Part shown: positions 1 through 50,772 of the stretch, in pieces
Numbering within the stretch: the stretch's first letter is position 1
Layout: every line of letters starts with the position of its first letter
Virus record (IMG/VR): IMGVR_UViG_3300030101_004884
Location: 1 to 53,289 of that record
DNA length: 53,289 bases
DNA from: a virus
Taxonomy: Duplodnaviria; Caudoviricetes
Strand: one strand, 5' to 3'
Translations under genes and position numbers: made by a program
The notes under the pieces: model-generated
Seen by the model: the letters and a program-made list of their open reading frames with translations, nothing else
Told to the model about the DNA's origin: nothing
Database searches by the model: none

Positions 1-99
1 TCCGCTACTAAATACGGTTTTTACGTTTTTACCCTTGTTTAATACGTTCTCCAGTGCCTTAATCATGATGCTACCCCTTTAATGTTTTGAGCGATTTCT
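1..99. repeat. 99-bp terminal overlap, identical to 53191..53289 (circular assembly)
   Basis: Exact identity of the first and last 99 nt; the minus-strand operon reads through the junction. Confidence 0.97.
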
Positions 100-149
100 A
101 TCGCTAGTTTTTTTGTTGTTTCGATGATTTCTCTAATAAGTTTTTTCAT
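63..149 (-). CDS. 28-aa peptide MKKLIREIIETTKKLAIEIAQNIKGVAS (not in ORF track)
   Basis: ATGA overlap with the stop of the upstream ORF (146-149) and TGA/ATG overlap with the next gene (66 = 53256). Confidence 0.6.
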   Translation of the reverse strand: MKKLIREIIETTKKLAIEIAQNIKGVAS

Positions 150-334
150 GAATTCACCTCATCCAAGGGCGAGAAGAAACACTTCTGGCAGCGATGCATG
201 CCATTGAGGCTGTCAACGGTGCTGTGGGTACGAAAAGGTTTTTTACCCTTTGGTGTGCAATCCTCACACACCATAACCATATGGCCAATTTGGCCTGTTG
301 GGAGTTTTACTGCGATTTCATTAATTTTTTTCAT
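146..334 (-). CDS. small Zn-binding hypothetical protein (CEDC...CQKC)
   Basis: Start moved to MKKINE, which follows a purine-rich RBS (GGCAGGGA); two CxxC pairs. Confidence 0.6.
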   Translation of the reverse strand: MKKINEIAVKLPTGQIGHMVMVCEDCTPKGKKPFRTHSTVDSLNGMHRCQKCFFSPLDEVNS

Positions 335-447
335 AACTGATCCCTGCCTTCCTCTATTTTGTAACACTAAACCCAAGGTATTTACAACACTAACAACACG
401 AAAAACACGAAAAAGATTAAAGACGATGATAACGTGTTGAAATTTAA

Positions 448-744
448 TCATCTTTTAAAGTTTAAATTTCGAGTATCTCTATATCTGGTCTTTTTATAAT
501 CAGGATCTTCGTTTTTTTTCTCGACTCTAAACCCCTTTAGCTCAAATATTTCAAAAAAATTCGTCCCACAATCCTCACATGTCGTAAATAACTCTATACA
601 AGTGTTAGATTTTCGCTTAACAAACCGACTTCCTGGTGCCACCACAAAACGATAAGAACCCTTGTTTTCTCGGCCACATACAGGACATTTTATCTCGTCT
701 CGTTTAGCGTTTTTTCTGTATTCCTTTTGTGATAATTTTTTCAT
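448..744 (-). CDS. Zn-ribbon protein, paralog of 51443..51706
   Basis: MKKLSQK.Y...CPxCG...CEDCGT.F.E.F.L.G shared with the 51443 ORF; ATGA overlap with the upstream gene. Confidence 0.75.
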   Translation of the reverse strand: MKKLSQKEYRKNAKRDEIKCPVCGRENKGSYRFVVAPGSRFVKRKSNTCIELFTTCEDCGTNFFEIFELKGFRVEKKNEDPDYKKTRYRDTRNLNFKR

Positions 745-1193
745 GATAATCCCTCTTTTCTGCATCCCTTCCTACATCCTTCCCACTGACAATTTTCACC
801 ACGCCACCGGAGCCACTTACAGCGAACCTTTAGGAAATGGGCGCTGTCCAGCTCCTGATAAAAAGCACATAGCTCTAAAAGGCCATAAACGTCCTCTTGA
901 TCTAGTGTAAAGTCGTAGCCCCTGGAATGGAGGTCACGGTTAAAACCCCTCACTTTAGCGTGCAAAATGCCGATGATTTGATGTGACTCTAGACCCCTAG
1001 TAGGTTTAAAAAACGCGCTATAGGCTTCTGAGGGGCCTCCTAGAAAGCGAACAGCGCCATTAAAGCATAGCGTGAATTCGAGCATGTCTCCCTTGAGTAG
1101 TTTTTCCTTAAGCCACTTTTCTACTTTTAAGCCCCTGGCGATGGATTCTTTTTTCAATTCTTTCTCTACTTCTATGATTGTTTCTTTTTCCAT
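741..1193 (-). CDS. hypothetical protein, first gene of the leftward early operon
   Basis: 150-aa ORF with GAAGGAAG RBS; coupled to the next gene. Confidence 0.65.
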   Translation of the reverse strand: MEKETIIEVEKELKKESIARGLKVEKWLKEKLLKGDMLEFTLCFNGAVRFLGGPSEAYSAFFKPTRGLESHQIIGILHAKVRGFNRDLHSRGYDFTLDQEDVYGLLELCAFYQELDSAHFLKVRCKWLRWRGENCQWEGCRKGCRKEGLS

Positions 1194-1194
1194 G

Positions 1195-1435
1195 ATGTTT
1201 TTTCTTCCTTCTATTTGTTAAACCGTCTCAGTCTTTTAAAACTCGCAGTTCGTAATGATTTTTTTCTCTCACCTGTTAAACGATGCCAGTTATAGATTTC
1301 TCGCATTTGGTAGTCGTTTTTTTCACCTCTCATATACGAAACCAGCTCAAGTGTATTTTTCTGGCAGTTCGCAATGATTTTTTTTCGCTTCTACAAATAA
1401 AACGATTCTCACGTCATTTTCTGACAGTTTAATGT
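1195..1435. repeat. degenerate ~60-bp tandem repeat (about 4 units)
   Basis: CTSRCAKTT cores at 1242, 1300, 1361 and 1421; the first three are followed by T-tracts. Confidence 0.55.
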
Positions 1436-1487
1436 AAAAAAAAGCAATAAAGGATATGTAGGACTATAAGTAGCTGATTTTATTGAC

Positions 1488-1772
1488 GTTACAAAAGTAA
1501 CAAAACGAAAATAAAAATGTAACCGCTAAAAGTCTTTTGTTTTCAATACGTTAGGCTATAAATTGGGCCTGAGTTACAAAACACAAAAAATTTACCCTAC
1601 CTATATAGAGAATTGAATTATGGATGTGATCTGTGTTGGGTGGGAAATTTATTCTCAGTATATATGGTTTTGTTTGTAACTTTGTAACTCTATTATTTTT
1701 CTTAGTTAAGTGTCTCTAAATTAAAAGCTTTTTCGGTTACAACAAATTGTAACTCTTTTGTCGCCTTGTTAC
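1488..1772. other. candidate replication origin (GTTAC/GTAAC iteron-like pentamers around an AT-rich TATATA core)
   Basis: Nine pentamers (1488, 1497, 1519, 1573, 1676, 1684, 1736, 1749, 1768) in non-coding AT-rich DNA; IHF-like sites near 1467 and 1841. Confidence 0.45.
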
Positions 1773-1887
1773 CCTATTGATTTATAAGGGTTTTCTATTA
1801 TCAACCACACGGTCAATATAGGGTTGAAATGGCGCTCTTGTATGTGTTTGATATATAAGAACTTTTTAGGGCCTATTTTTAGCGTTT

Positions 1888-1902
1888 TGGCACGATTCTT
1901 GC
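1888..1902 (+). promoter_or_regulatory. sigma54 -24/-12 site TGGCACGATTCTTGC
   Basis: Matches TGGCAC-N5-TTGC with exact GG-N10-GC spacing. Confidence 0.8.
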
Positions 1903-2019
1903 GACACTGAACATGTTTTCAGCAATAACTGCGAAGATACGCGCCGATTTTTGCCATTTTGACAAACTTTTGCAGATGTATGGTATTTTTACCATATCGA
2001 TACGTGAATCCGGTTCACG

Positions 2020-2075
2020 AAAAAACTTTTAAAAGGGGGGGGTTGAAAAAAACTTTTAAAAGGGGGGGTCCCCCT
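2020..2075. repeat. two copies of the dispersed AAAACTTTTAAAAGGGGGG element
   Basis: Same motif and orientation at 48294, 51080 and 52162. Confidence 0.8.
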
Positions 2076-2093
2076 TCTCTGGCCTCGCTCGCC

Positions 2094-2233
2094 CGTCAGA
2101 ATTTTGACACGTCAGAATTTTGACACGTCAGATTTCTGGCGTCATTTTTCTGACACGTCAAATCACTGACGCGCCAGATTGTTGACACGTCAAATTTGTG
2201 GCGTCAAATCGATGACGCGCCAAAAAATTGGCG
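2094..2233. repeat. tandem array of nine palindromic CGYCA-N6-TGRCR sites
   Basis: Units of 14-16 bp, e.g. CGTCA GAATTT TGACA, CGTCA AATCAC TGACG, CGCCA AAAAAT TGGCG. Confidence 0.9.
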
Positions 2234-2268
2234 CTAGAAATTGCGAAATTCAAATTCTACTTTTTATA

Positions 2269-2284
2269 TGCAAATTTGGTGCCA
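2269..2284 (-). promoter_or_regulatory. sigma54 -24/-12 site TGGCACCAAATTTGCA
   Basis: Consensus match with GG-N10-GC spacing. Confidence 0.8.
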
Positions 2285-2522
2285 ATTATCGCTTCACCTC
2301 CCAATTATTTTTTCGCCTAATTCAATTATATATAGGGCAAAAAACAAGGTTTTAAGCCCCTTGAATTAGATCCTGGAATTAGATCCTAAATTGCCGCGTC
2401 AATCGGTGCAAATTGGGCAAAATTCAAAATATGATTTTTTATTTTTTACAATTATTTTTTAGCCTAAAATTAAAAGCCTTATTTTTCATCTGTTTATGCT
2501 TTTCTTTTTGTTGTTTTTTTTA

Positions 2523-2551
2523 TTGTTTTCATTGTTTAAAATGTTTATAAA
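2523..2551 (+). promoter_or_regulatory. sigma70-like promoter TTGTTT-17-TATAAA
   Basis: AT-rich sequence upstream; precedes the 2600 operon; spacer begins TCATTG, like other early promoters. Confidence 0.55.
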
Positions 2552-2599
2552 GAGATCACTCTTTAAGAGAATGAACACTAAAAAAAGAAGGGATCAAAA

Positions 2600-2860
2600 A
2601 TGAAAATAGAAATCAACGAGGATTGCAATATCTGCACCGATTGTCTTTTGTATCTGGTCAATGGCGAGGAACCACACAACGAGGATCCGCAGCACCCTTT
2701 TGATGGTACAGGCAACAATACAAAATATTTTTCGTTTTCTTTGAAGAGCGAAGAAACATTTTTTAGCCATACAAGGTGTGATAACTGCCTAAGGCCTTTG
2801 GCTGGTGATCGACACAATGGTGATTTAATAGCTTACAAGACCGAAAAAAAAGAAGGATAA
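2600..2860 (+). CDS. Cys-rich hypothetical early protein
   Basis: RBS AAGGGA; CxxC motifs (ICTDC, RCDNC). Confidence 0.75.
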   Translation: MKIEINEDCNICTDCLLYLVNGEEPHNEDPQHPFDGTGNNTKYFSFSLKSEETFFSHTRCDNCLRPLAGDRHNGDLIAYKTEKKEG

Positions 2861-2866
2861 AAAACA

Positions 2867-3202
2867 ATGAAAAAACTAAATAAAAAAGAAAAAGAGATAT
2901 TTGTAAAACTTGAGAGCCTTCACTTGATGAAGGCTGATCTTAAATCGTCTTTGGCGTCAATTGCGGCACAAATTGCAGCCTATGAATTGCAATTACAAAC
3001 CATTGATCAACGTAAGTTAATCAACGGTAAATTATGGCATAACGGAATTGAGTTATACACGTTTAAAAGAACAACGTGTAAACACAAGAGCGTAGCAATT
3101 GATCTTGTGGAACGTCACGGAATCCCACGGAAAGATCTTGAGGAAGCAATTGAAAAGCATTCAAAGACTAATCAATCATTAAAAACTAAATTAGCATTAT
3201 AG
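2867..3202 (+). CDS. hypothetical coiled-coil early protein
   Basis: RBS GAAGGA; operon spacing. Confidence 0.75.
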   Translation: MKKLNKKEKEIFVKLESLHLMKADLKSSLASIAAQIAAYELQLQTIDQRKLINGKLWHNGIELYTFKRTTCKHKSVAIDLVERHGIPRKDLEEAIEKHSKTNQSLKTKLAL

Positions 3203-3211
3203 GGGTTCAAA

Positions 3212-3445
3212 ATGAAAAAAACGTTAATTCATGTGACTAACGACGAAACGCAAGAAACCAAAACGTATAGGGTTGTAGGCATGACCCATAGCGGATCAAG
3301 GGGCTTGGAGTACCAATTAAGTCCTGATCAACCCTTCGACGGTTTGGTTCATAGCGTTTGCCATGCGCCACCGGATGGAGTTTTAAGGTTTAAGTCAAGT
3401 GGTAATACATACCGAATTGAACACGTTGAAAGGGGCATATCATGA
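3212..3445 (+). CDS. hypothetical early protein
   Basis: RBS AGGGG; ATGA overlap with the next gene. Confidence 0.7.
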   Translation: MKKTLIHVTNDETQETKTYRVVGMTHSGSRGLEYQLSPDQPFDGLVHSVCHAPPDGVLRFKSSGNTYRIEHVERGIS

Positions 3446-4242
3446 GACAGTCAGTAAGGATCGGCGCATATGGCGATCCTTTTGCAGTGCCTAAAAACAT
3501 ATGGGAAAAGCTTTTTAAGGGCAGATCAAAGATCAAGCATAGGAGAAAAGACCTACCCGATCTTGGTTGGATCTTATATCGTGGCCCGTCTATGTTTGAT
3601 CCTAAGACTGAGATCGTGTTGATAGCTACTCGCAATTCGAGAAACATTAAAACTGGTAACATGATCCAGTTATGGATCTTACTTGTGGACATAGCGCCAC
3701 ACGAAGCCACAAAGGAATTGAAAGCTATTTGTGGTGGCTGTTTATATCGGCACGATCTAGCCGACAAGGGCAAAGGTGGCTGTTATGTGTTAAGGCATAA
3801 CGCTCCCTTAAGCATCTGGCGATCTTTTCACTCTGGTAAATATTCAACCGATACCGATCAAGCTTTTGACTTCATAGCAGATCAGATCGATCGCTATGGA
3901 TACACGGGATATAGTGAAGGCTCAATTCGTTTCTTAAACAGTAGAATAAAAGAGAAAGCGCAAAACGCTGAATTTCTAGCGTCTAAAATTATGTTGTCGG
4001 CCAAGTCTCAAATTGAAGCCTTGGAATTACAGCGTAAAGGCTTTAAAACATTTCGACCCGTTGGTTCGCTTGACGAAATGATAGAAGGCGAAACGCTTTG
4101 CGAGTCGGACAAAAACGATCTTCAGTGTGAAGAGTGTCTTAAGTGTGACGCTAAAAACGGATCGATCGTTGTGCTTGCTCATGGGGCAAAAAAGAAAACT
4201 GTATTACATACTATTGGATCCCTAAAACGCGCAACCGCTTAA
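3442..4242 (+). CDS. conserved Cys-rich phage protein (DUF7227/Gp88-like, recalled from memory), apparently with permuted motif order
   Basis: Motifs GWILYRGPS, SRNIKTGNMIQLWIL, ICGGC, CYV, VRIGAYGDP, TGY, GFKTFR, CEECLKC and AHG. Confidence 0.7.
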   Translation: MRQSVRIGAYGDPFAVPKNIWEKLFKGRSKIKHRRKDLPDLGWILYRGPSMFDPKTEIVLIATRNSRNIKTGNMIQLWILLVDIAPHEATKELKAICGGCLYRHDLADKGKGGCYVLRHNAPLSIWRSFHSGKYSTDTDQAFDFIADQIDRYGYTGYSEGSIRFLNSRIKEKAQNAEFLASKIMLSAKSQIEALELQRKGFKTFRPVGSLDEMIEGETLCESDKNDLQCEECLKCDAKNGSIVVLAHGAKKKTVLHTIGSLKRATA

Positions 4243-4269
4243 GCCCTATCGCCTAACCCTAACAAAACG

Positions 4270-4295
4270 AGCCCCCTTTAAAGGGGGCTTTTTTT
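4270..4295 (+). terminator. intrinsic terminator of the 2600-4242 operon
   Basis: AGCCCCC-TTTAAA-GGGGGCT followed by a T run. Confidence 0.85.
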
Positions 4296-4303
4296 ATGCC
4301 TTG

Positions 4304-4411
4304 CGTTCGTCGTTCGTTCGTCGTTCGTCGTCCGTCGTTCGTTCGTCGTTCGTTCGTCGTCCGTCGTTCGTTCGTCGTTCGTCGTTCGTTCGTCGTTCGT
4401 CGTCCGTCGTT
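4304..4411. repeat. A-free CGT/CGTT/CGTC microsatellite, 30 CGT units
   Basis: Directly visible; 108 bp. Confidence 0.95.
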
Positions 4412-4433
4412 GAAAAAATCGATACCTTTTTTT

Positions 4434-4551
4434 TGGTCCTATACTTGCATTATGCAAGATCGGTGCCACTTTTTTGGCATGAACCTTGCAATAATGCAAT
4501 TACCATACCCGAACCAAATTCTGTTTTTGTTGGCATGCAAGTTCCGTGCCA
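4434..4551. promoter_or_regulatory. cluster of five sigma54 -24/-12 sites in both orientations
   Basis: +4434 TGGTCCTATACTTGCA; -4468 TGGCACCGATCTTGCA; +4475 TGGCATGAACCTTGCA; -4510 GGGTATGGTAATTGCA; -4551 TGGCACGGAACTTGCA; all have GG-N10-GC spacing. Confidence 0.8.
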
Positions 4552-4613
4552 GGCCCCCTACCACAACCCAGCGCCAAATTAAGCCCTGAAGGTATCCCAC
4601 CTTTGATTACATT

Positions 4614-4658
4614 AAAAAAGGCCGCCCTTTCAGACGACCCTAGTTGGCCCGACGTTTA
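4614..4658 (-). ncRNA. candidate ~45-nt small RNA
   Basis: Promoter GTGCTT-17-TATTAA (4693..4665), then terminator GGTCGTCT-GAAA-GGGCGGCC-TTTTTT (4639..4614), with no ORF between them. Confidence 0.4.
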
Positions 4659-4917
4659 TGTGGTTTAATACAGGCTCCAAACAATAAAAGCACAATCGAC
4701 AAGCTAGGCCAAGTTTTATTTTCTAGAAATTGCGCTTGCCCAAAAACTGATCGGCCAATTTACAAAAAAACAAATTTTAAGCTGTTTTTGTCAAGGGACA
4801 TTTAGCATCCCCCCTTATTTGTCCCTAGTCATAATCGTTATGCAAACAATAAAGACAATGTAGCTTTTATCGCTAATATATGTTGCAAAAACAGCATTAT
4901 GGACATATTATCTGCAC

Positions 4918-5017
4918 ATCACAAAAAAAGCAGCGGTTTTAACCCCTTCCTTTCCGCTGCTACTTCTTTTTTGTTTGGTAGTTTTCCTCCCCTTGTTCGC
5001 GCAGGGGGAGGTTTTTT
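4918..5017 (+). ncRNA. candidate ~100-nt small RNA with C/U-rich loop
   Basis: TTGCAA-17-TATTAT promoter (4883..4911), hairpin AGCAGCGG/CCGCTGCT (4929..4961), terminator 4986..5017. Confidence 0.5.
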
Positions 5018-5065
5018 ATGGCTTAAGTGCTTGCGCCTAAAGATCCTGTGTGATCTTATACGTTT

Positions 5066-5141
5066 AACACAAGACCCATGTGTTGCGGCGACTCCAGGTG
5101 AACGCTCCCCCAAAAAACCATCATCTGGGGTCGCTTCTTTT
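5066..5141 (+). ncRNA. candidate structured RNA or terminator with CTCCCCC loop
   Basis: Hairpin AACACA/TGTGTT, then a 14-bp stem (5088..5134, two G-U pairs) followed by TTCTTTT. Confidence 0.4.
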
Positions 5142-5159
5142 ATTGGGTAGGGAGTTTTT

Positions 5160-5372
5160 ATGAAGTTACTGGCTGGTGTCGTCGTGTTCGCATCAATTTT
5201 TGGCGCGATCCCTTTTTTGCTTTTCGCCCACCTTCCGGCTTATGCGGCGGTATCGATAAACCTTCTTGTATCAGGGTTGATATTGGGTTTGATGTCTAAT
5301 GCGTCGAAGGAACAAGAAAGACCAGCTAAGCCTCTCACCACCGAAGAACTTATTAGATTGATGAAGAGGTAG
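5160..5372 (+). CDS. small two-TM membrane protein
   Basis: RBS GGGAG; two hydrophobic segments. Confidence 0.7.
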   Translation: MKLLAGVVVFASIFGAIPFLLFAHLPAYAAVSINLLVSGLILGLMSNASKEQERPAKPLTTEELIRLMKR

Positions 5373-5377
5373 GCGTC

Positions 5378-5848
5378 ATGGAAAACCATGAAAGATTTTT
5401 AAGCCATCTTGATAAAAGCTCAGAGGCGGTTTTTGCAGCAGCAGCGTTTCTTCATAAAAAGGGATTGGATGTAAGGATAAACGCAACCCGACGTGCGTCT
5501 TCTCATTCTGAGTGGAAGAAATACAGAGATGATGGCGACATTTATGCATACGACAAAAAAGGCAATTCATACAGAGTTGAGGCCAAGGGTTTAAGTTGCG
5601 ATTTTACCTCCGTGCGGGATTGGAAATTTAAAGACTTCATGGTGTGTGCAAAGCATTCTTTTGACTCTGCATCCCCTAAGCCTTATGCGTATATTATCTT
5701 AAATAAAAACAAGACCCATGCGGCCATAGTCAGGTCGTCAACAAGTTCTTGCTGGGAGACTGTTTCAAGAAAAGACTCAAGGTATGATAATGTTGTGCAG
5801 GAATTTTACACATGCCCCATGGGAAGCATTGATTGGGTTAGTTTATAA
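5378..5848 (+). CDS. hypothetical protein, possible PD-(D/E)xK nuclease fold
   Basis: DDGD...VEAK pattern; RBS GAGGT. Confidence 0.65.
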   Translation: MENHERFLSHLDKSSEAVFAAAAFLHKKGLDVRINATRRASSHSEWKKYRDDGDIYAYDKKGNSYRVEAKGLSCDFTSVRDWKFKDFMVCAKHSFDSASPKPYAYIILNKNKTHAAIVRSSTSSCWETVSRKDSRYDNVVQEFYTCPMGSIDWVSL

Positions 5849-5862
5849 AAAAAGAGGTAGGC

Positions 5863-6573
5863 GTGAATGAGTTGGCACTTTTTGCAGGAGCAGGCGGAGG
5901 AATCCTGGGAGGGTCATTGCTTGGATGGCGCACCCTCGCGGCTGTTGAAATTAATCCCTTTTGCAGGCGAGTCCTGCTCGCAAGACAACGAGACGGATGC
6001 TTGCCCGAGTTCCCCATCTGGGATGACGTGTCCACCTTCGATGGTCGACCATGGCGTGGATACATCGACATCATCACCGGAGGGTTCCCGTGCCAGGACA
6101 TTAGCACAGCAGGAGCAGGCGCTGGCATTTCGGGCAAAAGGTCAGGGCTCTGGTCGGAAATGGCGCGGATATGCAGCGAGATTATGCCGAGATTCATATA
6201 TGTGGAAAATAGCCCAATGCTCACAGGACGTGGACTTGACCGAGTTCTCATGGATATGGCCGCAATGGGGTATGATGCGCGATGGGGTATGTTATCCGCA
6301 GCCGATACGGGCGCACTCCATAAGCGCAAGCGCATCTGGGTTTTGGCCAACACCAACGGTTTACGGAAACCACAACAGGAAGGGCGCGAGCAAGTATTCG
6401 GGCGACGGCTTGGCGACAGCGGTTCGGAAGAATGCGGAAGTCGGTGGCCCCCTGAACCCTCAGTGGGTCGAATGGCTCATGGGGTGGCCGATAGGGTGGA
6501 CAGACTTAAGGCCCTTGGAAATGGACAGGTTCCAAGAGTGGCGGCGTCAGCATTCTTAATGTTGAAAAAATAG
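5863..6573 (+). CDS. C5-cytosine DNA methyltransferase, alpha-type polypeptide (motifs I-VIII and X)
   Basis: LFAGAGG, GGFPCQ, VENSP, HKRKRIW and RLKALGNGQVP. Confidence 0.92.
   Translation: MNELALFAGAGGGILGGSLLGWRTLAAVEINPFCRRVLLARQRDGCLPEFPIWDDVSTFDGRPWRGYIDIITGGFPCQDISTAGAGAGISGKRSGLWSEMARICSEIMPRFIYVENSPMLTGRGLDRVLMDMAAMGYDARWGMLSAADTGALHKRKRIWVLANTNGLRKPQQEGREQVFGRRLGDSGSEECGSRWPPEPSVGRMAHGVADRVDRLKALGNGQVPRVAASAFLMLKK
5867..6559 (+). CDS. nested +1-frame methyltransferase partner polypeptide (TRD/motif IX-like)
   Basis: 230-aa ORF entirely inside the MTase gene; carries WPTP and LNPQWVEWLMGWPIGWT, the segment absent from the main frame. Confidence 0.75.
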   Translation: MSWHFLQEQAEESWEGHCLDGAPSRLLKLIPFAGESCSQDNETDACPSSPSGMTCPPSMVDHGVDTSTSSPEGSRARTLAQQEQALAFRAKGQGSGRKWRGYAARLCRDSYMWKIAQCSQDVDLTEFSWIWPQWGMMRDGVCYPQPIRAHSISASASGFWPTPTVYGNHNRKGASKYSGDGLATAVRKNAEVGGPLNPQWVEWLMGWPIGWTDLRPLEMDRFQEWRRQHS

Positions 6574-6673
6574 CCTGCTCCCATCACAGACCTGCTGCTC
6601 ACCATCGAGCAACCCACCCTCCATATGGCGGCTCGTCAGCCTACCGGATCACAACCAGGGACTTCATTTGGTA

Positions 6674-7843
6674 TTAATTACAGTTCGTCGAAAAGAAGTC
6701 GAGAAGATCGTCAATCATCCAGACCGAGTATCCTAGAAAAAATATGGTTCCTCCCGTTGGTATGCCTATTTGCTCATATTCAGCAACATAATTAGGCTTA
6801 ATAACTGAATGAACAATGATACCAGAAGCAATACATGCCGACGTGGCCTCTTCAAGCGCCATGCTTTGCGCTGACTGGGGCTCTTCGTCGGTGAAGACAA
6901 GGAGATGTCTTTCTGCGTCTTGTCTCCAGGTGATTTCTGACGAGGAACAGACTTCATGGATGGCATCAATACCTGGCTCAAGGCCTCCTCCAATATTCGT
7001 AGCATTTATAATTTCTCCTTGGAATGTCGTGCCATCCACAAGGTCGGTGATAATCCTCATGGTTGCGTATCCAAATATTCTTTGTTCGTGCCTGGGTCCT
7101 GGAAAGACCGCTGCGCCGAACCGAGTTTCAGTGTCATTCATGGCTCCGGCTACGGTATGCGTTGTTGTTATTGCTTCGTTGAAAAGCGAGTCCATAGAGC
7201 CGGAACCGTCTATGATAAAAAATATGTCAATTTTATCAAAAAGATCTTCATCGATAAGGCCATCGCAATCATTGTCAAGACCGTCGCATATCTCCGTCGT
7301 CGGCGTTTTTTCGTGCAAGCACATTTCTTGAGCATTAACACAGTCTATCACCCCTGCCCTGCATTCGCCGAAAGCCAGCGTTTCAGGATTTCCAGTATAG
7401 CAAAGCTCCAAAGAAAGATTGTTGTCAACCAGACCATCGCAATCATCGTCGAGCCCATTGCAAACTTCGTCCACGCCTTCTTCTCTTCCTCTACAAACTC
7501 TTTGTCCTTCATCGCACACCTCCGTGCCAGCGTTACAAATACCTAAATTGGAACCACAGGCTTGTCCGGCCCACTCCTCGGTAAGGTTGTTATCAATTTC
7601 TCCATCGCAATCATCGTCGATCTGGTTACACAGCTCAGGGACGGGCAGTGTTTGGCCTTGGCAATTCACTACGATGTCGTTTTCATCACAAATCGTTACG
7701 CCGACCCCACAAGGTCCATTGCCTGCCGTTCCAGGGGGGCCAGCGTAACAGGGGAGATTGCAAGCCTTTGAAACCATCGCGATGTCTTCATCACATCCAG
7801 CCAAAGACAATAAAACCAATAAAGACAACACGGCTTTGTTCAT
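6674..7843 (-). CDS. lipoprotein with Cys/Asp-rich MopE-like repeats and a C-terminal vWA domain
   Basis: Lipobox LAGC; three ExC(N/D)xxD(D/N)DCDGx(I/V)D repeats; MIDAS DGSGS and FTDE. Confidence 0.85.
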   Translation of the reverse strand: MNKAVLSLLVLLSLAGCDEDIAMVSKACNLPCYAGPPGTAGNGPCGVGVTICDENDIVVNCQGQTLPVPELCNQIDDDCDGEIDNNLTEEWAGQACGSNLGICNAGTEVCDEGQRVCRGREEGVDEVCNGLDDDCDGLVDNNLSLELCYTGNPETLAFGECRAGVIDCVNAQEMCLHEKTPTTEICDGLDNDCDGLIDEDLFDKIDIFFIIDGSGSMDSLFNEAITTTHTVAGAMNDTETRFGAAVFPGPRHEQRIFGYATMRIITDLVDGTTFQGEIINATNIGGGLEPGIDAIHEVCSSSEITWRQDAERHLLVFTDEEPQSAQSMALEEATSACIASGIIVHSVIKPNYVAEYEQIGIPTGGTIFFLGYSVWMIDDLLDFFSTNCN

Positions 7844-8094
7844 TAAACACCCATTCGATCCAGTAGGCTGTCCACAAGACCCCTTGTTGCGCCTGCCATG
7901 TTCGCCAGCTCGTAAAGCTCTTGTTTGCTAATAAATCCGCGTTGATACACGCCAATGGCGTAAAAGAAAAGCTTTGCGCGATCTTCATCACCGTTGAAAT
8001 ACATATCAACAACGTTCTGCATGGGTCTGTATGATTTAGCTTCAAGGTCTAAAATGCGCTCAAGCTCATATATTTTTTCTTTTATATCTATCAT
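7843..8094 (-). CDS. hypothetical protein
   Basis: Start moved to MIDIK, downstream of the terminator; stop/start overlap with the lipoprotein gene. Confidence 0.6.
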   Translation of the reverse strand: MIDIKEKIYELERILDLEAKSYRPMQNVVDMYFNGDEDRAKLFFYAIGVYQRGFISKQELYELANMAGATRGLVDSLLDRMGV

Positions 8095-8990: not shown

Positions 8991-9238
8991 AAGCACTCCC
9001 ACCTTAAAACGCCAAACTCATCTCTGTGAAATTCGCCTTCTTCGTAAAATGTGTGATTAATCCCCTCAACGGTTACATCGAAGAATGCTTTTTGAAGCTC
9101 ATAGAACGAAGTTATCTGCACTTCCCTAAAAAACCCAAGTCCAAATTCGTCCTCAAAAGCGCAAAGCTCTAGAAGCAGGCACATGGGTTCGCCGTTAAGG
9201 TCTTCGTCTATTTTAACCAGTGAATATCGCCATTCCAC
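8987..9238 (-). CDS. antisense 83-aa hypothetical protein between terS and terL
   Basis: GGAGG RBS 8 nt before a GTG at 9238; fills the otherwise empty gap. Confidence 0.55.
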   Translation of the reverse strand: MEWRYSLVKIDEDLNGEPMCLLLELCAFEDEFGLGFFREVQITSFYELQKAFFDVTVEGINHTFYEEGEFHRDEFGVLRWECF

Positions 9239-9311
9239 CCTTGCGGCCTCCTGTTTTCTTGTTTTATCATATAATGCTTTGATTACGTTATTAAATGTTT
9301 TATATTTAGCC

Positions 9312-10664
9312 ATGGCAACAAGAGTAAAAAAACCTAAAAAAGAAATGCCTTCGACCATGGAGAAAATCCAGGCGCTACCAGAAAAAACCAAACAGGAAAT
9401 ACTCGCGTCCCTGAGCGTTGAGCAGTTGGCCGAAATGGATCATATGTGGGAAATGTGGGCACGCCCCAAGCAGCTTCCTCCAAAGGGAGACTGGTTTGTT
9501 TGGCTGATTTGCGCTGGCCGTGGTTTCGGCAAGACCCGAAGCGGCGCTGAGTTTGTTCGCATGATGGTGGAAAGCGGTCGCGCTAAAAGAGTTGCACTGG
9601 TTGGCCGTACCGCAGCTGATGTTCGTGATGTTATGATTGAGGGCGAATCTGGCATTTTAGCTTGTTGCCCAAAATGGAACAGGCCTGAGTATATTATTAC
9701 AAAACGCAGGCTCGTATGGCCAAACGGTGCGATTGCTACTACTTATTCTTCCCAGGAGCCTGATATGCTTCGTGGTCCCCAGCATGATCTTGCTTGGTGT
9801 GACGAACTTGCAGCATGGCAGTACGATGAAACCTTTGATCACTTAAAGCTAGGTCTGCGTTTGGGGCGTAAGCCAAGAATGTGTATCACCACAACACCTA
9901 AGCCTAACATGTTGATGCGACAGTTATTAAAGTCACAAGGGGTCCATGTAACCACTGGATCGACCTATGAGAACAAAAGCAACTTGTCTAACAACTTCTT
10001 TCAAGAGGTGGTTGGAAGGTATGAGGGTACGTCCCTGGGCCGTCAAGAGATTTACGGCGAACTTTTGGAGGACCTTCCTGGCTCCTTGTGGCGATTTTCT
10101 ACCATCGAGAGGTGTCGCGTTAGCAAGTCGCCCGAGTTCAAGCGCGTGGTGATTGGTGTTGACCCAGCCATTAAATCAGATAAGGATGAGACAGGCATTT
10201 CAGTCTGCGGCATTGGCGAAGATAACAAGGCGTATGTTATAGCAGATCTATCTTGTAGAGAAAGCCCTCAAAACTGGGCGAGAATTGCAATTAACGCTTT
10301 TTTTGAGTATGGTGCTGATCGTATAGTGGCGGAATCCAACCAGGGTGGTGAAATGGTGACTTCGGTTATAAAAACCGCAAACCCCAATGTGCCAGTTAAA
10401 GCTGTTTGGGCTACTAAATCAAAAGCGTCTCGCGCTGAACCCATTTCTGCTTTGTATGAGCAGGGTCGGGTTCACCATATCGGAATCTTTGAGGACCTTG
10501 AAGACCAAATGGTGACTTATCAGCCAGGACAACGAAAATCTCCAGATCGACTGGATGCTATGGTTCATGCGTTAACAGAGTTAATGCTGAAGCGAAAAGC
10601 ACCTTTGGATTTGGCAAAATTTAATTGGGGATTCGGTACTCGCGATAACCCCTGGAGACTGTAG
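9312..10664 (+). CDS. terL: terminase large subunit
   Basis: Walker A GRGFGKT, Walker B AWCDE, nuclease motifs GVDPA and DRLDA; start moved to MATRV. Confidence 0.95.
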   Translation: MATRVKKPKKEMPSTMEKIQALPEKTKQEILASLSVEQLAEMDHMWEMWARPKQLPPKGDWFVWLICAGRGFGKTRSGAEFVRMMVESGRAKRVALVGRTAADVRDVMIEGESGILACCPKWNRPEYIITKRRLVWPNGAIATTYSSQEPDMLRGPQHDLAWCDELAAWQYDETFDHLKLGLRLGRKPRMCITTTPKPNMLMRQLLKSQGVHVTTGSTYENKSNLSNNFFQEVVGRYEGTSLGRQEIYGELLEDLPGSLWRFSTIERCRVSKSPEFKRVVIGVDPAIKSDKDETGISVCGIGEDNKAYVIADLSCRESPQNWARIAINAFFEYGADRIVAESNQGGEMVTSVIKTANPNVPVKAVWATKSKASRAEPISALYEQGRVHHIGIFEDLEDQMVTYQPGQRKSPDRLDAMVHALTELMLKRKAPLDLAKFNWGFGTRDNPWRL

Positions 10665-12017: not shown

Positions 12018-14367
12018 GCAAGCCTACGCCGTGGCTCGCTCTATGGGTTGCGACAAGATTCATAAAATGCCCGATGGGACATACATGCCTTGCGGTTCAC
12101 ACGCTGAGTATGACAGGATGAAAAAAGATGGACGTAATACAAAGAGTTATAAAGTATCGCTGCCTGTTGAGAATGCTTTGCGTAGAAAAATGCGATCCCA
12201 CAACAGCAGGTACGGAGATGATAAAAAGACTAGAGCAACTCTTGGTGCCCTTAAAAGAGTCTACTCGGACGGTCTTAAGTCATACAAGGAAAACCGAGCC
12301 CAGAGCAGAGAAAAGTGGGCCTACGGAAAAGTGAATGGATACCTTAACTCGCTCGCTAAAGAAATTGAAAAGGCCAAAGGCGATGCATCTTCCACCCCAG
12401 CTCCTCCAAGCGATAGGCGTTCCGGTTCCAGTAGAAACAAGCCAGGTTCGGCATCCGGCTCCAGAGGCGGAATAATTGTTACCGATTCTACCGAGAAAAC
12501 CCTCCGCAACAAGATTGATGCTCACAACGATAAGAACACAAAGTCATGGCAAAAAGCGACCATGGGCAAACTAAAGGCGGTTTATCGTCGCGGAGCAGGC
12601 GCTTTCTCCACATCCCATCGACCTGGTATGACCAGATCACAGTGGGCTTTTGCTAGGGTTAACGCTTTTCTTTATTTGCTGTCTAAGGGCAGGCCAAAAA
12701 ATTCTAAATACATTACCGACAACGATCTTTTGCCTAGCGGCCATCCGGCCCTTAAAAAGTCTGAGGGCTTAGAGAAGTCTAAATCGTTTCGCCCACCGCA
12801 GTCCGTTGCTGACGCAGCTCGACGCGCGTTAGAGGTTCGTGCAAAAAAGCCGCCATCTCAGCGAGGTATGACCCTCGTTGGCCTAGCAAGGGCCAGGGAT
12901 TTATCGAACCGAAAAAGCCTTTCTCTTGATACCGTTAAGAGAATGAAGGCTTATTTTGATCGTCACGAGGTAGATAAAAAAGGTTCTACATGGAGTGAAA
13001 AAGGCAAGGGCTGGCAAGCGTGGCACGGATGGGGTGGCGACGCCGGACGCTCGTGGGCCAATAAAATATTAAGAATGGAATCAAGGACAACAAGGAAGAT
13101 GAATAATATTTTTAAGCTTAAAGAATTATGCGACGGAATGTACCCCCTCATGGTTGCTAATGACTTGTATGAGAAAGTTGAGGTCGGTACTTGGCCTGAG
13201 CTTGCGATGCTCCTGAAAAAGTCTGAAGATTGTTCGTGGATTTACAGCAAGGAAGACGAAGAAATATGTCGTCTTGATAAGAGGCCATCAACTGTTTTAA
13301 AGGTTGAGGGCAAGAAAAGTCATTCCATGCTTTCTGGAAAGCATAAGTACACCCTCGTGGATGCACACGGCAAAACCGTGGAAACGGGATGGCTTGATGA
13401 TGATTTCAGGGTGGCAGACCATGTTACATCTGAAGACCAGGACCCAACCGAGTCAGCAAAAATCATTACTCTGACTGATGAAGACAGAGAGCTTGATGGT
13501 ATCGCAGAGACGATTGCGGATGGCGTTACTACCAAAGAGTTTTTTAAAACCCTGGTTGACAACAAGACCGAGAAGAACGCAAGCCTTGTTTTTCTTTCTT
13601 TGATGCCAACTCTTGATGAAATTGATGCCGGAGAATGTCTTTGCGGTAGCATTAAAAAGAACCTGGGGGAGCAGATAATTGATCCCATCGCAACCCACTT
13701 AGACCAGGTGAGCTTTGTCAACATTGTTCCTTTTGAGGTAACGGATGAGATAGGCAAGAGATCTGCGCCGGACAAAGAAACTGTTGATGAGTGGCGGCCA
13801 CTTGTTGACCTCGCGCTGGCCAAGGCGGATAAAAATGCGATTGTTGTCGCCCTTGGCAAGGATGTTGCCGCTCACTATTTAGATGTGGTTGATTTTGTTA
13901 TGCCGCATCCGTTTTCAAAGTCAAAATACAGCCTTCCACGCAAGGTCGAAGAGCTAAAGAAAGCGTATGAAAAGAAATTTGACCGTCAGGTTAAAATCAC
14001 CAAAAGCGACACCGATAGACGACTTGTTTATGGTGTTGTTTTGGAGCCAGAGGTTATTGATGCACATAATGATGTTGTTTCTGTTGACGAAATAGAAAAC
14101 GCAGCGCATAATTACCTCATAAAGTCTCGAATGATTGGCGATCAGCACAATAAGCCAGCCAAAGCAGACATAGTAGAAAGTTATATTGCACCCGCCGATC
14201 TGGATATAGGTGGTCAGCAAATCAAAAAGGGTTCCTGGGTTATGGTTACGAAAGTACACGATGACCGAATGTGGACAGGCATCAAAAAAGGCTCTTACAC
14301 AGGGTACTCTATTGGTGGCTACGCAGTAAAAGAACCCATTGAAGATGTCGGGCATTTATCACAGTAA
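11998..14367 (+). CDS. multidomain prohead protease (C-terminal XkdF/S78-like) with N-terminal cargo domains, including a UDG-like fold
   Basis: RLVYGVVLEP..D.H, IVESYIAP, KGSWV and YTGYSIGG; start moved to MPYKT. Confidence 0.85.
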   Translation: MPYKTTEQAYAVARSMGCDKIHKMPDGTYMPCGSHAEYDRMKKDGRNTKSYKVSLPVENALRRKMRSHNSRYGDDKKTRATLGALKRVYSDGLKSYKENRAQSREKWAYGKVNGYLNSLAKEIEKAKGDASSTPAPPSDRRSGSSRNKPGSASGSRGGIIVTDSTEKTLRNKIDAHNDKNTKSWQKATMGKLKAVYRRGAGAFSTSHRPGMTRSQWAFARVNAFLYLLSKGRPKNSKYITDNDLLPSGHPALKKSEGLEKSKSFRPPQSVADAARRALEVRAKKPPSQRGMTLVGLARARDLSNRKSLSLDTVKRMKAYFDRHEVDKKGSTWSEKGKGWQAWHGWGGDAGRSWANKILRMESRTTRKMNNIFKLKELCDGMYPLMVANDLYEKVEVGTWPELAMLLKKSEDCSWIYSKEDEEICRLDKRPSTVLKVEGKKSHSMLSGKHKYTLVDAHGKTVETGWLDDDFRVADHVTSEDQDPTESAKIITLTDEDRELDGIAETIADGVTTKEFFKTLVDNKTEKNASLVFLSLMPTLDEIDAGECLCGSIKKNLGEQIIDPIATHLDQVSFVNIVPFEVTDEIGKRSAPDKETVDEWRPLVDLALAKADKNAIVVALGKDVAAHYLDVVDFVMPHPFSKSKYSLPRKVEELKKAYEKKFDRQVKITKSDTDRRLVYGVVLEPEVIDAHNDVVSVDEIENAAHNYLIKSRMIGDQHNKPAKADIVESYIAPADLDIGGQQIKKGSWVMVTKVHDDRMWTGIKKGSYTGYSIGGYAVKEPIEDVGHLSQ

Positions 14368-14424
14368 GCCTGGATATTATTCACTTGCTGCTTGTAATTC
14401 TGCAAGCAATGATAGGAGTCCGTC

Positions 14425-15276
14425 ATGAAAATTAAGCGATTGAAGGAACTTGAAACGCACGAGGTGAGCATTGTCGATAGACCTGCTAATCGCCGCACGT
14501 TTTTAGTTCTTAAAAATGAAACCTCTACAGGAGATAAAGACATGGAAGATAAAATTCTTAGTCTTCTGGATACGCCCTTTGAAAACGAAGAGCAGTATTT
14601 AGAAACTCTAAAGAAAAATGAAATGTCTGATGACGCCATCCAGGCCATCGCGGCTGCAATGCGACTTTTAAAACCACACCAGGAAATGCTTTCCGGTGAA
14701 GGTGTGAATGTCGTAAAGGAGTTATTAGGCATTGAAGAAGAAGAGACGACCTCCGATGATAACGAGGGAACTACTGATACCGAGTTGGATATTAACGAAG
14801 TACCAGAGGACGTTCGTGATCAGGTGGAAAGTCTTTTTAAGAGCCAATCTGAAGCCATTCAAAAGGCTGAGGAACTAGAGAAAGAAATCAATGTGATGAA
14901 AGCTGAAAAGTTGCGAAAGCAATTTATCACTAAAGCTGAGTCAGATTTTGGCAGCGTTCCTGGAACCACTGCTGTTGACCTTGGTGAATTGCTCCAAGAG
15001 TTAACTGCTGTAGCGCCAGAAGCAACGGCAAAAATTGAATCTATCTTAGAATCTGTAAACAAAGCTATGGAAACCTCTGAAGTATTAGAAGAAGCTGGTC
15101 AAGCGGCCAAAGAAGAAACTGGTACTGCATGGGACAAGGTAGAGGCTCGTGCTGCCGAGTTACGTAAAGACAATCCTGATCTTTCCGTATATCAGGCTCG
15201 CGCCAAGGTGTTGGAGAGCAATACCGAACTTTTTCAAGCTTATAATAACGAATTTGAATCCAATAAAAGGAGCTAA
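14425..15276 (+). CDS. scaffold protein with N-terminal protease-like EVSIVDRPAN segment
   Basis: Acidic coiled coil located between the protease and capsid genes. Confidence 0.75.
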   Translation: MKIKRLKELETHEVSIVDRPANRRTFLVLKNETSTGDKDMEDKILSLLDTPFENEEQYLETLKKNEMSDDAIQAIAAAMRLLKPHQEMLSGEGVNVVKELLGIEEEETTSDDNEGTTDTELDINEVPEDVRDQVESLFKSQSEAIQKAEELEKEINVMKAEKLRKQFITKAESDFGSVPGTTAVDLGELLQELTAVAPEATAKIESILESVNKAMETSEVLEEAGQAAKEETGTAWDKVEARAAELRKDNPDLSVYQARAKVLESNTELFQAYNNEFESNKRS

Positions 15277-15278
15277 TA

Positions 15279-15662
15279 ATGGCAACTCAACAAAGTTTGA
15301 CTTGTATTACGCTTGAAGCAGGCGCAGACCTCTCCAGCGATCAATACAAACTGGTAAAATTAAGTGCTGGCAAAGCAGTTCTCTGTGCAGCCGCAACCGA
15401 CGCCCCAGTTGGCGTTTTACAAAACAAGCCTGGTTCTGGCGAGGCTGCAACTGTTTGTGTTAGCGGAGCAACAAAATTGCTCGCAGGCGCAACCATTAAC
15501 TCTGGCGAACTTGTTGGCACAGATGCATCAGGCACTGCTGACTCCAAGACCCCAGGCACTGACACTGATGAATATGTCGTCGGTACTGCCTTAACTGGCG
15601 CTGCCTCTGGTGAAATTCTCACCGCTTTGATCAACACTGAAGCACCTCACCGTGCCTCATAA
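15279..15662 (+). CDS. capsid cement/decoration protein (DUF2190-like)
   Basis: Ala/Gly-rich; VGVLQNKP..GEAATV motif; lies immediately before the MCP. Confidence 0.8.
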   Translation: MATQQSLTCITLEAGADLSSDQYKLVKLSAGKAVLCAAATDAPVGVLQNKPGSGEAATVCVSGATKLLAGATINSGELVGTDASGTADSKTPGTDTDEYVVGTALTGAASGEILTALINTEAPHRAS

Positions 15663-19022: not shown

Positions 19023-19268
19023 ATGTCTTACTTAATTGGAAAATCCATGGCCAAGCCTGTAGATGTACAGAGTGGTGATATTCCCGTATTTGATGATTCA
19101 GGCAACGTACAAAGCCTTTCTCCTACTGAAACCTATGTTGAACAAAAGCCCTCCCCAAACTCGCAAGGGATTAGGGGTCAGAGATATTACGACGGAGTTT
19201 ATATATATGAATGTGTCGCGGAAAACATGTGGCGAAGGTATTATGCGGAGGCAGAGTGGGATGATTGA
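19023..19268 (+). CDS. small structural protein with fibre-tip-like motif
   Basis: P..NSQGIRGQRYYDGVYIYECVAENMWRR. Confidence 0.6.
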   Translation: MSYLIGKSMAKPVDVQSGDIPVFDDSGNVQSLSPTETYVEQKPSPNSQGIRGQRYYDGVYIYECVAENMWRRYYAEAEWDD

Positions 19269-28888: not shown

Positions 28889-28890
28889 TC

Positions 28891-42519: not shown

Positions 42520-43221
42520 ATGACCTGGACCTTAAAGCAAGGCGACTGGCGAGATGAGCTGGCCGACATCGAAGAAGTTGACGCAATCATAACCGACCCG
42601 CCATTTGGCGCACGAACACACAAGGGCGATGCCGCAGCAGCGGTTCAACAAAAGTCAGCAACAGGTCAAAGCAAGCGGCGACCTATTACGTATAAAAACT
42701 TTCACCCTGCTGATGTTTATGAGTTTGTTTATTCGTGGCAACATCGCAACAAGGGATGGTGGATTTGCATTACATCGCACGATCTGATTCCCGCATGGGA
42801 GCAAGCCTTTAGAGAGATCGGGCTATACTCGTTTGCTCCGCTGCCGTTTATACGTAAAGTGCCGAGGCTTTTAGGCGACGGTCCCGCGTCATGGGCTGAC
42901 TATATCATGGCGGCGCGGCCAAGAAACATTAACTACAGTAGATGGGGATGCAGACCAGGCGCTTACGTGCTTGAGAAGGGCCATTACGAGCGTAAAAAGA
43001 TCGCGGTAGGCGGTAAGCCTATATGGTTAATGAAGAAGCTTGTAGAGGACTACACGAAGCCTGGTGACGTTGTATGCGACCCTTTTGCTGGTGGGGCCAC
43101 AACTCTAGCTGCTGCCACAATGCTTGGGCGCAAGTCTGTAGGGTGTGAGCTGCGCGAGGAGATATACCAAAAGGCGCTAGAGCGTTTATCGGGAATCACA
43201 ACAGAATCGGATGCTGCATGA
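42520..43221 (+). CDS. DNA N6-adenine/N4-cytosine methyltransferase (beta class)
   Basis: ITDPPF precedes KP..L and DPFAGGATT. Confidence 0.9.
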   Translation: MTWTLKQGDWRDELADIEEVDAIITDPPFGARTHKGDAAAAVQQKSATGQSKRRPITYKNFHPADVYEFVYSWQHRNKGWWICITSHDLIPAWEQAFREIGLYSFAPLPFIRKVPRLLGDGPASWADYIMAARPRNINYSRWGCRPGAYVLEKGHYERKKIAVGGKPIWLMKKLVEDYTKPGDVVCDPFAGGATTLAAATMLGRKSVGCELREEIYQKALERLSGITTESDAA

Positions 43222-46157: not shown

Positions 46158-46377
46158 TTGGAATCCATCCTGCCCAGTAGCCTTTTTCGTTTTTTGTAAA
46201 ATTAAATGTTTCGTACAAGGTCATCTCAACCATGCGACCACGATGGTGACGCAACCTTGTGACGATCGCCCTAAGAAGCATAATTCTTTTACCAGCGCCC
46301 ATACAAATCTCTTTTACTGTTAAATTCATGGACGGTATTCTCATCTCGTAAATATCCGTCTTCGTTTCCTCAATCAT
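46150..46377 (-). CDS. hypothetical protein
   Basis: Operon packing; AGGGG RBS. Confidence 0.6.
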   Translation of the reverse strand: MIEETKTDIYEMRIPSMNLTVKEICMGAGKRIMLLRAIVTRLRHHRGRMVEMTLYETFNFTKNEKGYWAGWIPNE

Positions 46378-50677: not shown

Positions 50678-50772
50678 CTAAAAACATGTTAATAAATAAT
50701 GTTTTTAGCATATTTTTGATCAAGCATCTATATGTAAGGCTTTATGCTTGGAAAACATGCCATCGCGAGTCG

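Follow-up and report, generated by a model that had tools for sequence, protein, structure and literature searches.

The phage genome IMGVR_UViG_3300030101_004884, an IMG/VR virus record of 53,289 bp (hereafter the window, that is, the whole stretch of DNA analyzed), carries seven sequences matching the −24/−12 pattern of promoters that depend on the bacterial sigma factor sigma-54 (RpoN), four of which form two mirror pairs with their −12 boxes facing each other. Such sites are clustered in the window, the mirror arrangement recurs in many viral contigs and is virtually specific to viruses, and in most site-bearing viral genomes the sites are gathered in one hub. The window has a 99-bp terminal repeat and is a complete phage genome, in which coordinate 1 may be arbitrary because of this repeat. 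It is very probable that the motif is read by a conserved host factor for two-part sites, namely sigma-54, a reading that presumes rpoN in the host. More tentatively, and somewhat short of even confidence, we favor the view that these sites of host sigma-54 polymerase are activator-gated promoters for short or leader transcripts, located near what is probably the origin of replication and upstream of the late operon. Sigma-54 binding, start points, transcripts, and the activator are all inferred here from sequence.

Exact matches to TGGCAYNNNNNTTGC (TGGCAY-N5-TTGC) occur at five positions of the window, 1888 (plus strand), 2284 (minus), 4468 (minus), 4475 (plus), and 4551 (minus), where a first-pass annotation of this DNA had placed them. 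Shuffled versions of the genome contain 0.42 exact sites on average and 3 at most, with none of 100 shuffles reaching five, and the pattern read backwards, used as a control, has no matches in the record (0/0). A search of the whole record found no exact site outside 1888–4551, which makes the list of exact sites exhaustive and agrees with the annotation's impression that comparable sites do not occur elsewhere. Rather than being spread over the genome at uniform density, the exact sites are thus enriched in this segment, and all five fall in the non-coding gaps 1433–2600 and 4243–4898, which account for ~3.4% of the genome. The excess over chance, the non-coding location, and the spacing of exactly 10 bp between the GG and GC doublets are all as expected of sigma-54-dependent promoters. 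When compared with TGGCAYN5TTGCW, four sites have no mismatches, one has one, and two have two. Transcription starts were predicted from the sigma-54 register, in which GG is at −24 and GC at −12 from the start (PMC3844500), with the C of the GC doublet set as −12. The exact sites P1 (1888–1903, plus strand; TGGCACGATTCTTGCG; predicted start ~1914, rightward) and P2 (2269–2284, minus strand; TGGCACCAAATTTGCA; predicted start ~2258, leftward) converge over ~345 bp containing iterons and two 22-nt repeats. The cluster at 4434–4551 consists of the weak site A (4434–4449, plus strand; TGGTCCTATACTTGCA, i.e., TGGTCC-TATAC-TTGCA; predicted start ~4460, rightward), the exact site B (4453–4468, minus strand; TGGCACCGATCTTGCA; predicted start ~4442, leftward), the exact site C (4475–4490, plus strand; TGGCATGAACCTTGCA; predicted start ~4501, rightward toward the late operon), the weak site D (4495–4510, minus strand; GGGTATGGTAATTGCA, i.e., GGGTAT-GGTAA-TTGCA; predicted start ~4484, leftward), and the exact site E (4536–4551, minus strand; TGGCACGGAACTTGCA; predicted start ~4525, leftward). 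Sites A and D, also named in the annotation, are present with two mismatches each; sites of this class occur genome-wide at chance frequency (63 found vs 60.7 expected), as does bare GG-N10-GC (342 vs 325), and the two weak sites count only because each mirrors a strong one, A mirroring B and D mirroring C.

In both head-to-head pairs that the annotation had described, the −12 boxes are indeed close, being 3 nt apart in A/B (TTGCA at 4445–4449, TTA, TGCAA at 4453–4457) and 4 nt apart in C/D (TTGCA at 4486–4490, ATAA, TGCAA at 4495–4499). The annotation had taken this for a non-productive geometry, which proved to be mis-derived: the C positions of the facing −12 boxes are 6 or 7 bp apart, so that the predicted starts do not collide but diverge, 18 or 17 bp from each other. 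Each predicted start falls within the spacer of the partner site, and therefore a mirror pair should hold only one polymerase at once. From this geometry, we predict that a mirror pair is a compact divergent two-way promoter with mutually exclusive polymerase sites; by geometry alone, the pairs belong with two-way promoters defined as opposite-strand elements whose divergent starts are 10–23 bp apart. Across loci, the distance between the −12 C positions of mirror pairs is 6 (55 cases), 7 (41), 8 (22), or 5 (8), only distances 6 and 7 having been selected for in the search pattern, and the predicted starts are 16–19 bp apart with a mode of 17–18.

A half-palindrome scan of viral contigs retrieved at least 118 stretches, and the strict palindrome TGGCAY-N5-TTGCA-N3/4-TGCAA-N5-RTGCCA is found in 63 viral stretches, compared with none for the same pattern read backwards. 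The 596 Gb of bacterial and archaeal genomes contain three matches to the strict palindrome. Two of these are actinomycete inverted repeats, which are complementary through the spacers too, and the third is on a 5.5-kb phage-like contig of a Saprospiraceae metagenome-assembled genome (MAG) that has five sites in 100 bp and one more 1.8 kb off. The earlier contention that the sites are not ordinary promoters holds to the extent that the mirror arrangement is virtually absent from bacteria. Tandem same-strand pairs within 8–38 nt are present in more than 120 viral stretches; since a mirror pair accompanies them in only 13 of the 76 loci new from the tandem scan, one-way arrays are commoner than palindromes. 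At least three sites are present in 78 of the 138 loci from the palindrome scans.

Palindromes could also act as hairpins or cruciforms, that is, as terminators, RNA stem-loops, or hairpin promoters, and it would fit such a role that 4425–4560 folds better than its shuffles (z of −3.2 and −3.8 on the two strands) and that a T-run follows the A/B palindrome. However, in 119 palindromes the complementarity between the spacers of the two arms is 0.255, below the 0.327 ± 0.019 of shuffles, which leaves stems of 5 and 6 bp separated by a 5×5 internal loop instead of the whole-arm complementarity of a hairpin or terminator; what is conserved is sequence, not pairing. Furthermore, single sites and one-way arrays outnumber palindromes, and the actinomycete matches, perfect hairpins including the spacers, look different. 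We thus regard a hairpin function as very improbable; spacers that agree less than expected by chance point to arms that are independent two-part sites.

One hub per genome is the rule for these sites, holding for most of 17 site-bearing records of up to ~480 kb, in which the backwards control pattern has 0–1 matches each. The hub contains all sites in G001 (4/4, at 1451–1836), G006 (8/8, 42652–43075), G008 (10/10, 20238–20745), G005 (7/7, 28585–28963), G007 (3/3, 48581–49327), G015 (12/12, 50085–51698), and G017 (4/4, 13512–15400), as well as 4/5 sites in G009 (30727–30819), 6/9 in G019 (19075–19211), and 3/4 in G016 (43006–43089). In larger records, hubs with 21/25 sites in 4 kb (G012, 354 kb), 14/19 in 3.3 kb (G014, 179 kb), 12/19 in 6.2 kb (G013, 210 kb), 11/16 in 10.2 kb (G011, 448 kb), and 10/21 in 4.6 kb (G010, 481 kb) were detected, and the exception is G018, with 13 sites over 23 kb. 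Many arrays are located at contig ends, probably since repeats break assemblies. In one such terminal array (L193, 1–120), a 28-bp unit containing TGGCATGAAGATTGC is repeated perfectly in tandem, and a gene follows ~120 nt on. In another locus (L085, 2040–2480, minus strand), each of 7–9 tandem sites has the conserved word TATGTGAG or AAGGTGAG right after TTGC, suggesting a conserved start region.

A single hub per genome is also typical of origins, pac sites, and centromere-like arrays, and those arrays in which inverted repeats recur with a 46-bp period are reminiscent of plasmid centromeres. The motif might accordingly be read by some other protein of the phage or host that binds DNA, the hub being an origin, packaging, or partition site that merely resembles −24/−12. 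Several observations would suit this explanation: the hubs of the window, G008, and L117 are located beside iterons; a TKGCA core is common to both boxes, at a distance of one helical turn; the sigma-54 reading presumes rpoN in the host; and the tandem matches listed include two contigs labeled as giant-virus MAGs. These two contigs (L254 and L256) have tandem sigma-54-type sites, which in L256 lie inside a 339-codon open reading frame (ORF), and may represent mis-binned phage DNA or coding repeats; if they truly derive from eukaryotic viruses, they count against the sigma-54 reading.

Nevertheless, the outer box is always of the GG type and the inner one always of the TTGC type, and the free positions of 544 unique sites agree with the sigma-54 consensus, reportedly that of Barrios and colleagues, in their flanking preferences: T precedes TGG in 55%, a purine follows TGGCAY in 88%, and A or T follows TTGC in 94%. 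The pattern of these sites also resembles that of the Salmonella sites presented in PMC3844500. The 78 loci with at least three sites, together with the window, fall into 22 groups that share no protein of ≥100 aa and range in G+C content from 0.32 to 0.62, and yet the motif is identical across these unlinked groups, whereas the sites of phage-specific binders co-evolve with them and diverge. Among six whole genomes, no protein family common to all was found at the BLAST level. Moreover, single non-repeated sites such as P1 are conserved. On balance, another binder is quite unlikely; recurrence of the same motif in 22 unlinked groups, with no common phage protein found, implies a host factor, very probably sigma-54.

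The closest relatives of the window, G001 and G002, are 51-kb records with terminases 90% identical to that of the window. P1 is kept at 1451 on the plus strand of G001 (TGGCACGCTTCTTGC) and, with an identical core, at 85–99 on the minus strand of G002, and the ~180 nt after P1 are 70% identical in G001. Downstream of P1, at the place equivalent to P2, G001 has three minus-strand sites (1754, 1795, and 1836), each mirroring a weak plus-strand site with a 2-nt box spacing. At the position of the second cluster of the window, no sites were found in G001 or G002, so that conservation in related phages, which the annotation had proposed to check, is found for P1 and not for that cluster; the sequence just right of the cluster (4556–4783) is conserved in both relatives. 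Judging from these alignments, P1, which is kept while the arrays differ, is stable, and the site arrays turn over and move. In the distant relative L117/G015, the portal of which is 39% identical to that of the window, 12 of 12 sites lie within 1.6 kb upstream of the terminase operon, beside iterons. Four of five cultured terminase relatives have no site and the fifth, CRP-6, has two scattered ones, with none clustered; the further terminase relatives G003 and G004 have none. A conserved 18-mer of the G-run repeat, used as a query, matched only G001 and two unrelated contigs. Searches with L021, L073, and the L014 portal returned no cultured relatives for two cluster-bearing families, and with the DNA polymerase of G008 identity did not exceed about 27%.

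A passive binding site should ignore direction, whereas a promoter or a directional block should not, and orientation therefore bears on the role of the sites. Among 71 dereplicated clusters of at least three sites, both flanks could be called (ORFs of ≥100 aa) in 49, and the flanks of mixed clusters are divergent in 22/49, co-directional in 24/49, and convergent in 3/49. Of 27 one-way arrays, 18 of the 21 with a called upstream ORF have it pointing away; on the downstream side, 13 of 23 ORFs run in the same direction as the array, their median distance being 190 nt. This orientation bias, above all the 18/21 divergent upstream ORFs, favors a direction-dependent, promoter-like role. In addition, canonical site-to-gene cassettes exist: L117 has the textbook succession of a site, a ribosome-binding site, and, 62 nt on, the ATG of an ORF of 111 codons, after which comes a terminator; in G008, a site is followed by hairpins, AAGGAGG, and GTG; and the cassettes of L193 and L214 are similar.

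Every strong site of the window has a terminator-like hairpin downstream on its own strand. A hairpin with a T-run (2058–2078, minus strand) lies ~180–200 nt downstream of the P2 start, and a weak terminator-like hairpin (2125–2142, plus strand) is located downstream of P1. The two-way hairpin at 4269–4290, which ends the gene 3442–4242, would terminate transcripts running leftward from B, D, and E at a length of ~150–255 nt. Finally, a strong hairpin of 11 pairs with a T-run (4986–5011, plus strand) is found before the late genes, ~490–550 nt past the predicted starts of A and C, and G001 has a comparable hairpin and T-run at the same relative place. The position of this hairpin suggests an attenuator ahead of the late genes; it sits within a nominal 83-codon ORF (4899–5150), which may not be real. 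We favor the promoter reading on account of the biased orientation, the canonical cassettes, the terminator-like hairpins that accompany the sites of the window, and the fact that P1 is conserved together with the region it would transcribe.

Several results weigh against promoters. The orientation counts rest on crude ORF calls, and many of the loci are related, so that the counts are not independent. One-way arrays oppose the downstream gene in 10 of 23 cases, and in L085, 9 of 11 sites oppose both neighboring genes. Gene starts are no more frequent 15–150 nt past the predicted start of single sites (28/291) than in a mirrored control (32/291), and over 15–300 nt the excess is only mild (75/291 vs 52/291). 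In the L014 family, the stretch from the array to the first late gene contains a near-consensus sigma-70 promoter, and one close relative, G002, has P1 alone in a search of its whole record. The tiling of site cores in arrays (26–29 and 46–47 bp) is too dense for simultaneous occupancy by holoenzyme, and no RNA runs containing window positions 1400–5400 were listed. The weak point of the promoter reading, however, is the activator. Searches for the Sigma54_activat domain found none in the window, G005–G009 (40–51 kb), and G010–G014 (11 records in all), those for Sigma54_DBD found none in the window or G010–G014 (6 records), and on these negative results a phage-encoded sigma-54 or activator was rejected. 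Among window frames of ≥100 residues, Walker A motifs are present only in the terminase frame and in one 119-residue plus-strand frame (45964–46320), which overlaps minus-strand genes and was judged to be spurious.

A candidate cofactor was likewise rejected. A small four-cysteine protein with an NC.L.D.CYR motif (46370–46594, minus strand) is common to the window, G001, G002, and the otherwise unrelated G009, and a profile search of 30 further records (27 retrieved with the site patterns, G002 among them, and also G003 and G004, which are terminase relatives) matched only G002.

The same results can be read as non-productive capture, in which the hub binds free or holoenzyme sigma-54 without transcription and either titrates sigma-54 away from host promoters via replicated DNA or serves as a roadblock or insulator between transcription units. 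The single dense hub per genome, seen even at ~178–480 kb, would suit this role, as would the mirror arrangement being virus-specific and the failure to find an encoded activator, given that closed complexes are stable and an activator is needed to open them (PMC3844500). The 16-bp cores do not overlap and are spaced by 3–6 bp in the window cluster and by 26–29 bp in tandem arrays, a tiling more easily reconciled with free sigma-54 or another small binder than with polymerase. Close downstream genes are rare; the first-pass annotation, which saw none adjacent to any site, was broadly right about the window: measured from the predicted starts, the nearest co-oriented ORF starts are ~690 nt from P1 (to 2600), ~925 nt from P2 (to 1333), and ~400 nt from the site at 4475 (to 4899), and B, D, and E, which point leftward, are directed at the 3′ end of the gene 3442–4242. 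Some arrays meet oncoming transcription head-on, and the window cluster lies between the terminator of the early-right operon and the late operon. However, a sponge predicts random orientation, as opposed to upstream ORFs that diverge in 18 of 21 cases and flanks that converge in only 3 of 49; mirror pairs, by halving the capacity for holoenzyme, would make a poor holoenzyme sponge; a lone conserved P1, as in G002, would be useless as one; and the canonical cassettes count against it as well. Capture is, in our estimation, unlikely, if less so than another binder. The related proposal that the sites coat or protect a DNA end was rejected, because they are located 1.9–4.5 kb inside a terminally redundant record with a 99-bp repeat.

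If the sites are indeed activator-gated promoters, all seven would bind the host sigma-54 RNA polymerase holoenzyme, and at A/B and C/D polymerase would sit either way, not both, with outward starts 17–18 bp apart. P1 and P2 would fire toward each other across the iteron array, a probable origin, and the cluster at 4434–4551 would fire to the right, into the long late-operon leader (the operon extends from the terminase gene to the tail genes), and to the left, into a purine-rich repeat ending at a terminator, so that the products would mostly be short non-coding or leader transcripts. As the phage encodes no recognizable activator, a host enhancer-binding ATPase would be required, which might act from solution or from nearby dyads. 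Transcription at the origin and in the late leader would thereby be coupled to the physiological state of the host.

The iteron array between P1 and P2 (2094–2242) comprises about eight units resembling TGACACGTCA, spaced by 16/46 bp, and is followed by an A+T-rich stretch at about 2290–2580. The iterons, the A+T-rich stretch, and the presence of a primase/helicase, with no polymerase match among the ORFs searched, make this region the probable origin of replication. The hubs of G008 (GTTGGTTAAAGCTGACCA, three copies) and L117 (TCAATATCTA repeats) likewise have iterons next to them. The 22-nt repeat preceding the array (AAAAAACTTTTAAAAGGGGGGG; two copies at 2020–2068) holds a perfect palindrome, CTTTTAAAAG; it is kept, again twice, in G001 (L136, 1615–1665) and, with a looser match, in two copies in G002. 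Candidates for upstream dyads from which an activator might act are GTTACAACAAATTGTAAC at 1737–1754 and two copies of AGGATCTAATTC at 2361–2390. Dyads of the GTTACAA/TTGTAAC type are found upstream of P1 at 1737–1754 and 1489–1505 of the window and ~60–80 bp upstream of P1 in G002, and are candidate operator or enhancer sites. The word WGGATCTWA was rejected as an enhancer word, its four matches (1.66 expected) being equaled in 7 of 100 shuffles and hence not significant.

The cluster at 4434–4551 is preceded by a tandem (CGTTCGT...)n repeat (4293–4425) that has almost no A on the plus strand, and a leftward transcript through it would be purine-rich. At the corresponding place, G001 has a C/A-rich, T-poor tract. 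The repeat has very high metagenome depth, which comes from unrelated contigs. To the right of the cluster, the non-coding block 4596–4790 (minus strand), kept in G001 and G002, contains an invariant 20-mer (AAGCCTGTATTAAACCACAT, minus strand) and a minus-strand terminator-like hairpin (4641–4618); it may encode a small RNA that is read leftward, antisense to the leader of the late operon, or it may be a late promoter region.

The genome is organized into a rightward gene block (about 4.9–43.7 kb), a block of small, leftward genes that extends from 1333 via the record ends to 43865, and a short rightward operon with ribosome-binding sites (2600–4242). The structural part of the rightward block encodes the terminase (9183–10664), portal, a protease/head fusion, the major head protein, and tail-sized ORFs, and its other genes include those for an amidase, RecE/RecT-like proteins, a helicase, a primase/helicase (38162–41143), SSB, a resolvase, and methyltransferases. 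No DNA polymerase or integrase was matched among the window ORFs searched, which were all but a few smaller ones. Among the products of the leftward block is a sigma factor of the sigma-70 family (46870–47457, minus strand), which has regions 2 and 4 and is absent from the other hub-bearing genomes compared. A 389-aa protein that combines a von Willebrand A domain with metal-binding repeats of the MopE type is encoded at 6674–7843 on the minus strand, opposing the direction of the late block. The nearest cultured phages by terminase (~46% identity) have as hosts Brevundimonas, a Roseobacter-group strain, and others, that is, alphaproteobacteria and others. Several marine metagenomes carry the same phage at low depth, and contigs from four DNA runs contain it at low depth together with heavy unrelated cover of the simple repeat. 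Positions 1–8000 of the window had no match among GenBank phages in a DNA search, Rfam and tRNA scans of the window returned nothing, and the 266-aa neighbor protein, used as a query, retrieved no related loci.

To our knowledge, sigma-54 transcription is the sole bacterial initiation pathway without an established role in phage development. If the hubs do consist of genuine sigma-54 sites, a considerable number of environmental phages must rely on this pathway, sense it, or disable it, and the sites would offer a way to study how genes are controlled in uncultured marine phages. It is possible, though doubtful, that a dedicated sigma-54 hub in many uncultured phages, ranging in size from tailed phages of 40 kb to records of ~480 kb, takes over the host sigma-54 pool, either through a phage factor unlike known enhancer-binding ATPases that unlocks closed complexes or through mirror-paired tiling that sequesters sigma-54 and silences its regulon. 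Such a takeover would be a new mode of phage–host transcriptional conflict, and the unlocking factor would be the sigma-54 counterpart of sigma appropriation by T4. The mirror-paired unit, for its part, would be the first two-way sigma-54 promoter architecture and, owing to its near-absence from bacteria, a sequence signature of phage DNA.

Among known phage systems, P2/186-type phages have face-to-face promoter switches, and T4 and T7 have origins composed of a promoter plus an unwinding element, all of which use sigma-70 or phage polymerases. P1 and P2 are similar to these in converging over ~345 bp beside iterons and an A+T-rich stretch. The nearest link between phages and sigma-54 that we found in open-access PMC/bioRxiv is Htm (Gp204) of Mosigvirus AV110, an AAA+ protein that folds like enhancer-binding proteins and lacks GAFTGA, for which action on sigma-54 polymerase is the authors' hypothesis (bioRxiv 10.64898/2026.10.06.757011). 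We found no mention of phage-borne sigma-54 sites there, and no description of clusters of such sites on phage genomes in open-access PMC/bioRxiv main texts. Unlike AV110, the window has no comparable ATPase, with Walker A confined to the terminase frame and one probably spurious frame.

The phage sites share with bacterial sigma-54 promoters the sequence TGGCAY-N5-TTGCW, the fixed spacing, and the flanking preferences (PMC3844500). They differ in being carried by lytic-looking phage genomes in which no encoded activator was found, in being gathered in one hub per genome, often in tandem (26–29 or 46–47 bp) or mirror-paired, and in usually lying hundreds of nucleotides from genes. In this last respect, they resemble the orphan and intragenic sigma-54 sites of Salmonella, E. 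coli, and Vibrio, which have no obvious downstream gene either and have been proposed to produce antisense RNA, cause transcriptional interference, or serve as promoters of small RNAs (PMC3844500); however, those are scattered singly in chromosomes, whereas the phage sites are arrayed in a hub and in part mirror-paired. The closest parallel to the mirror pairs is provided by the pseudo-symmetric two-way sigma-70 promoters described by Warman, Grainger and colleagues (PMC12825309), in the main text of which the term 'Sigma54' is absent. These, too, are short symmetric elements on which polymerase can sit either way, one binding event excluding the other, and their divergent starts are most often 18 bp apart. 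They depend on a shared, symmetric −10 hexamer and undergo spontaneous opening, whereas the phage mirror pairs consist of two complete −24/−12 sites facing each other and would need an ATPase activator.

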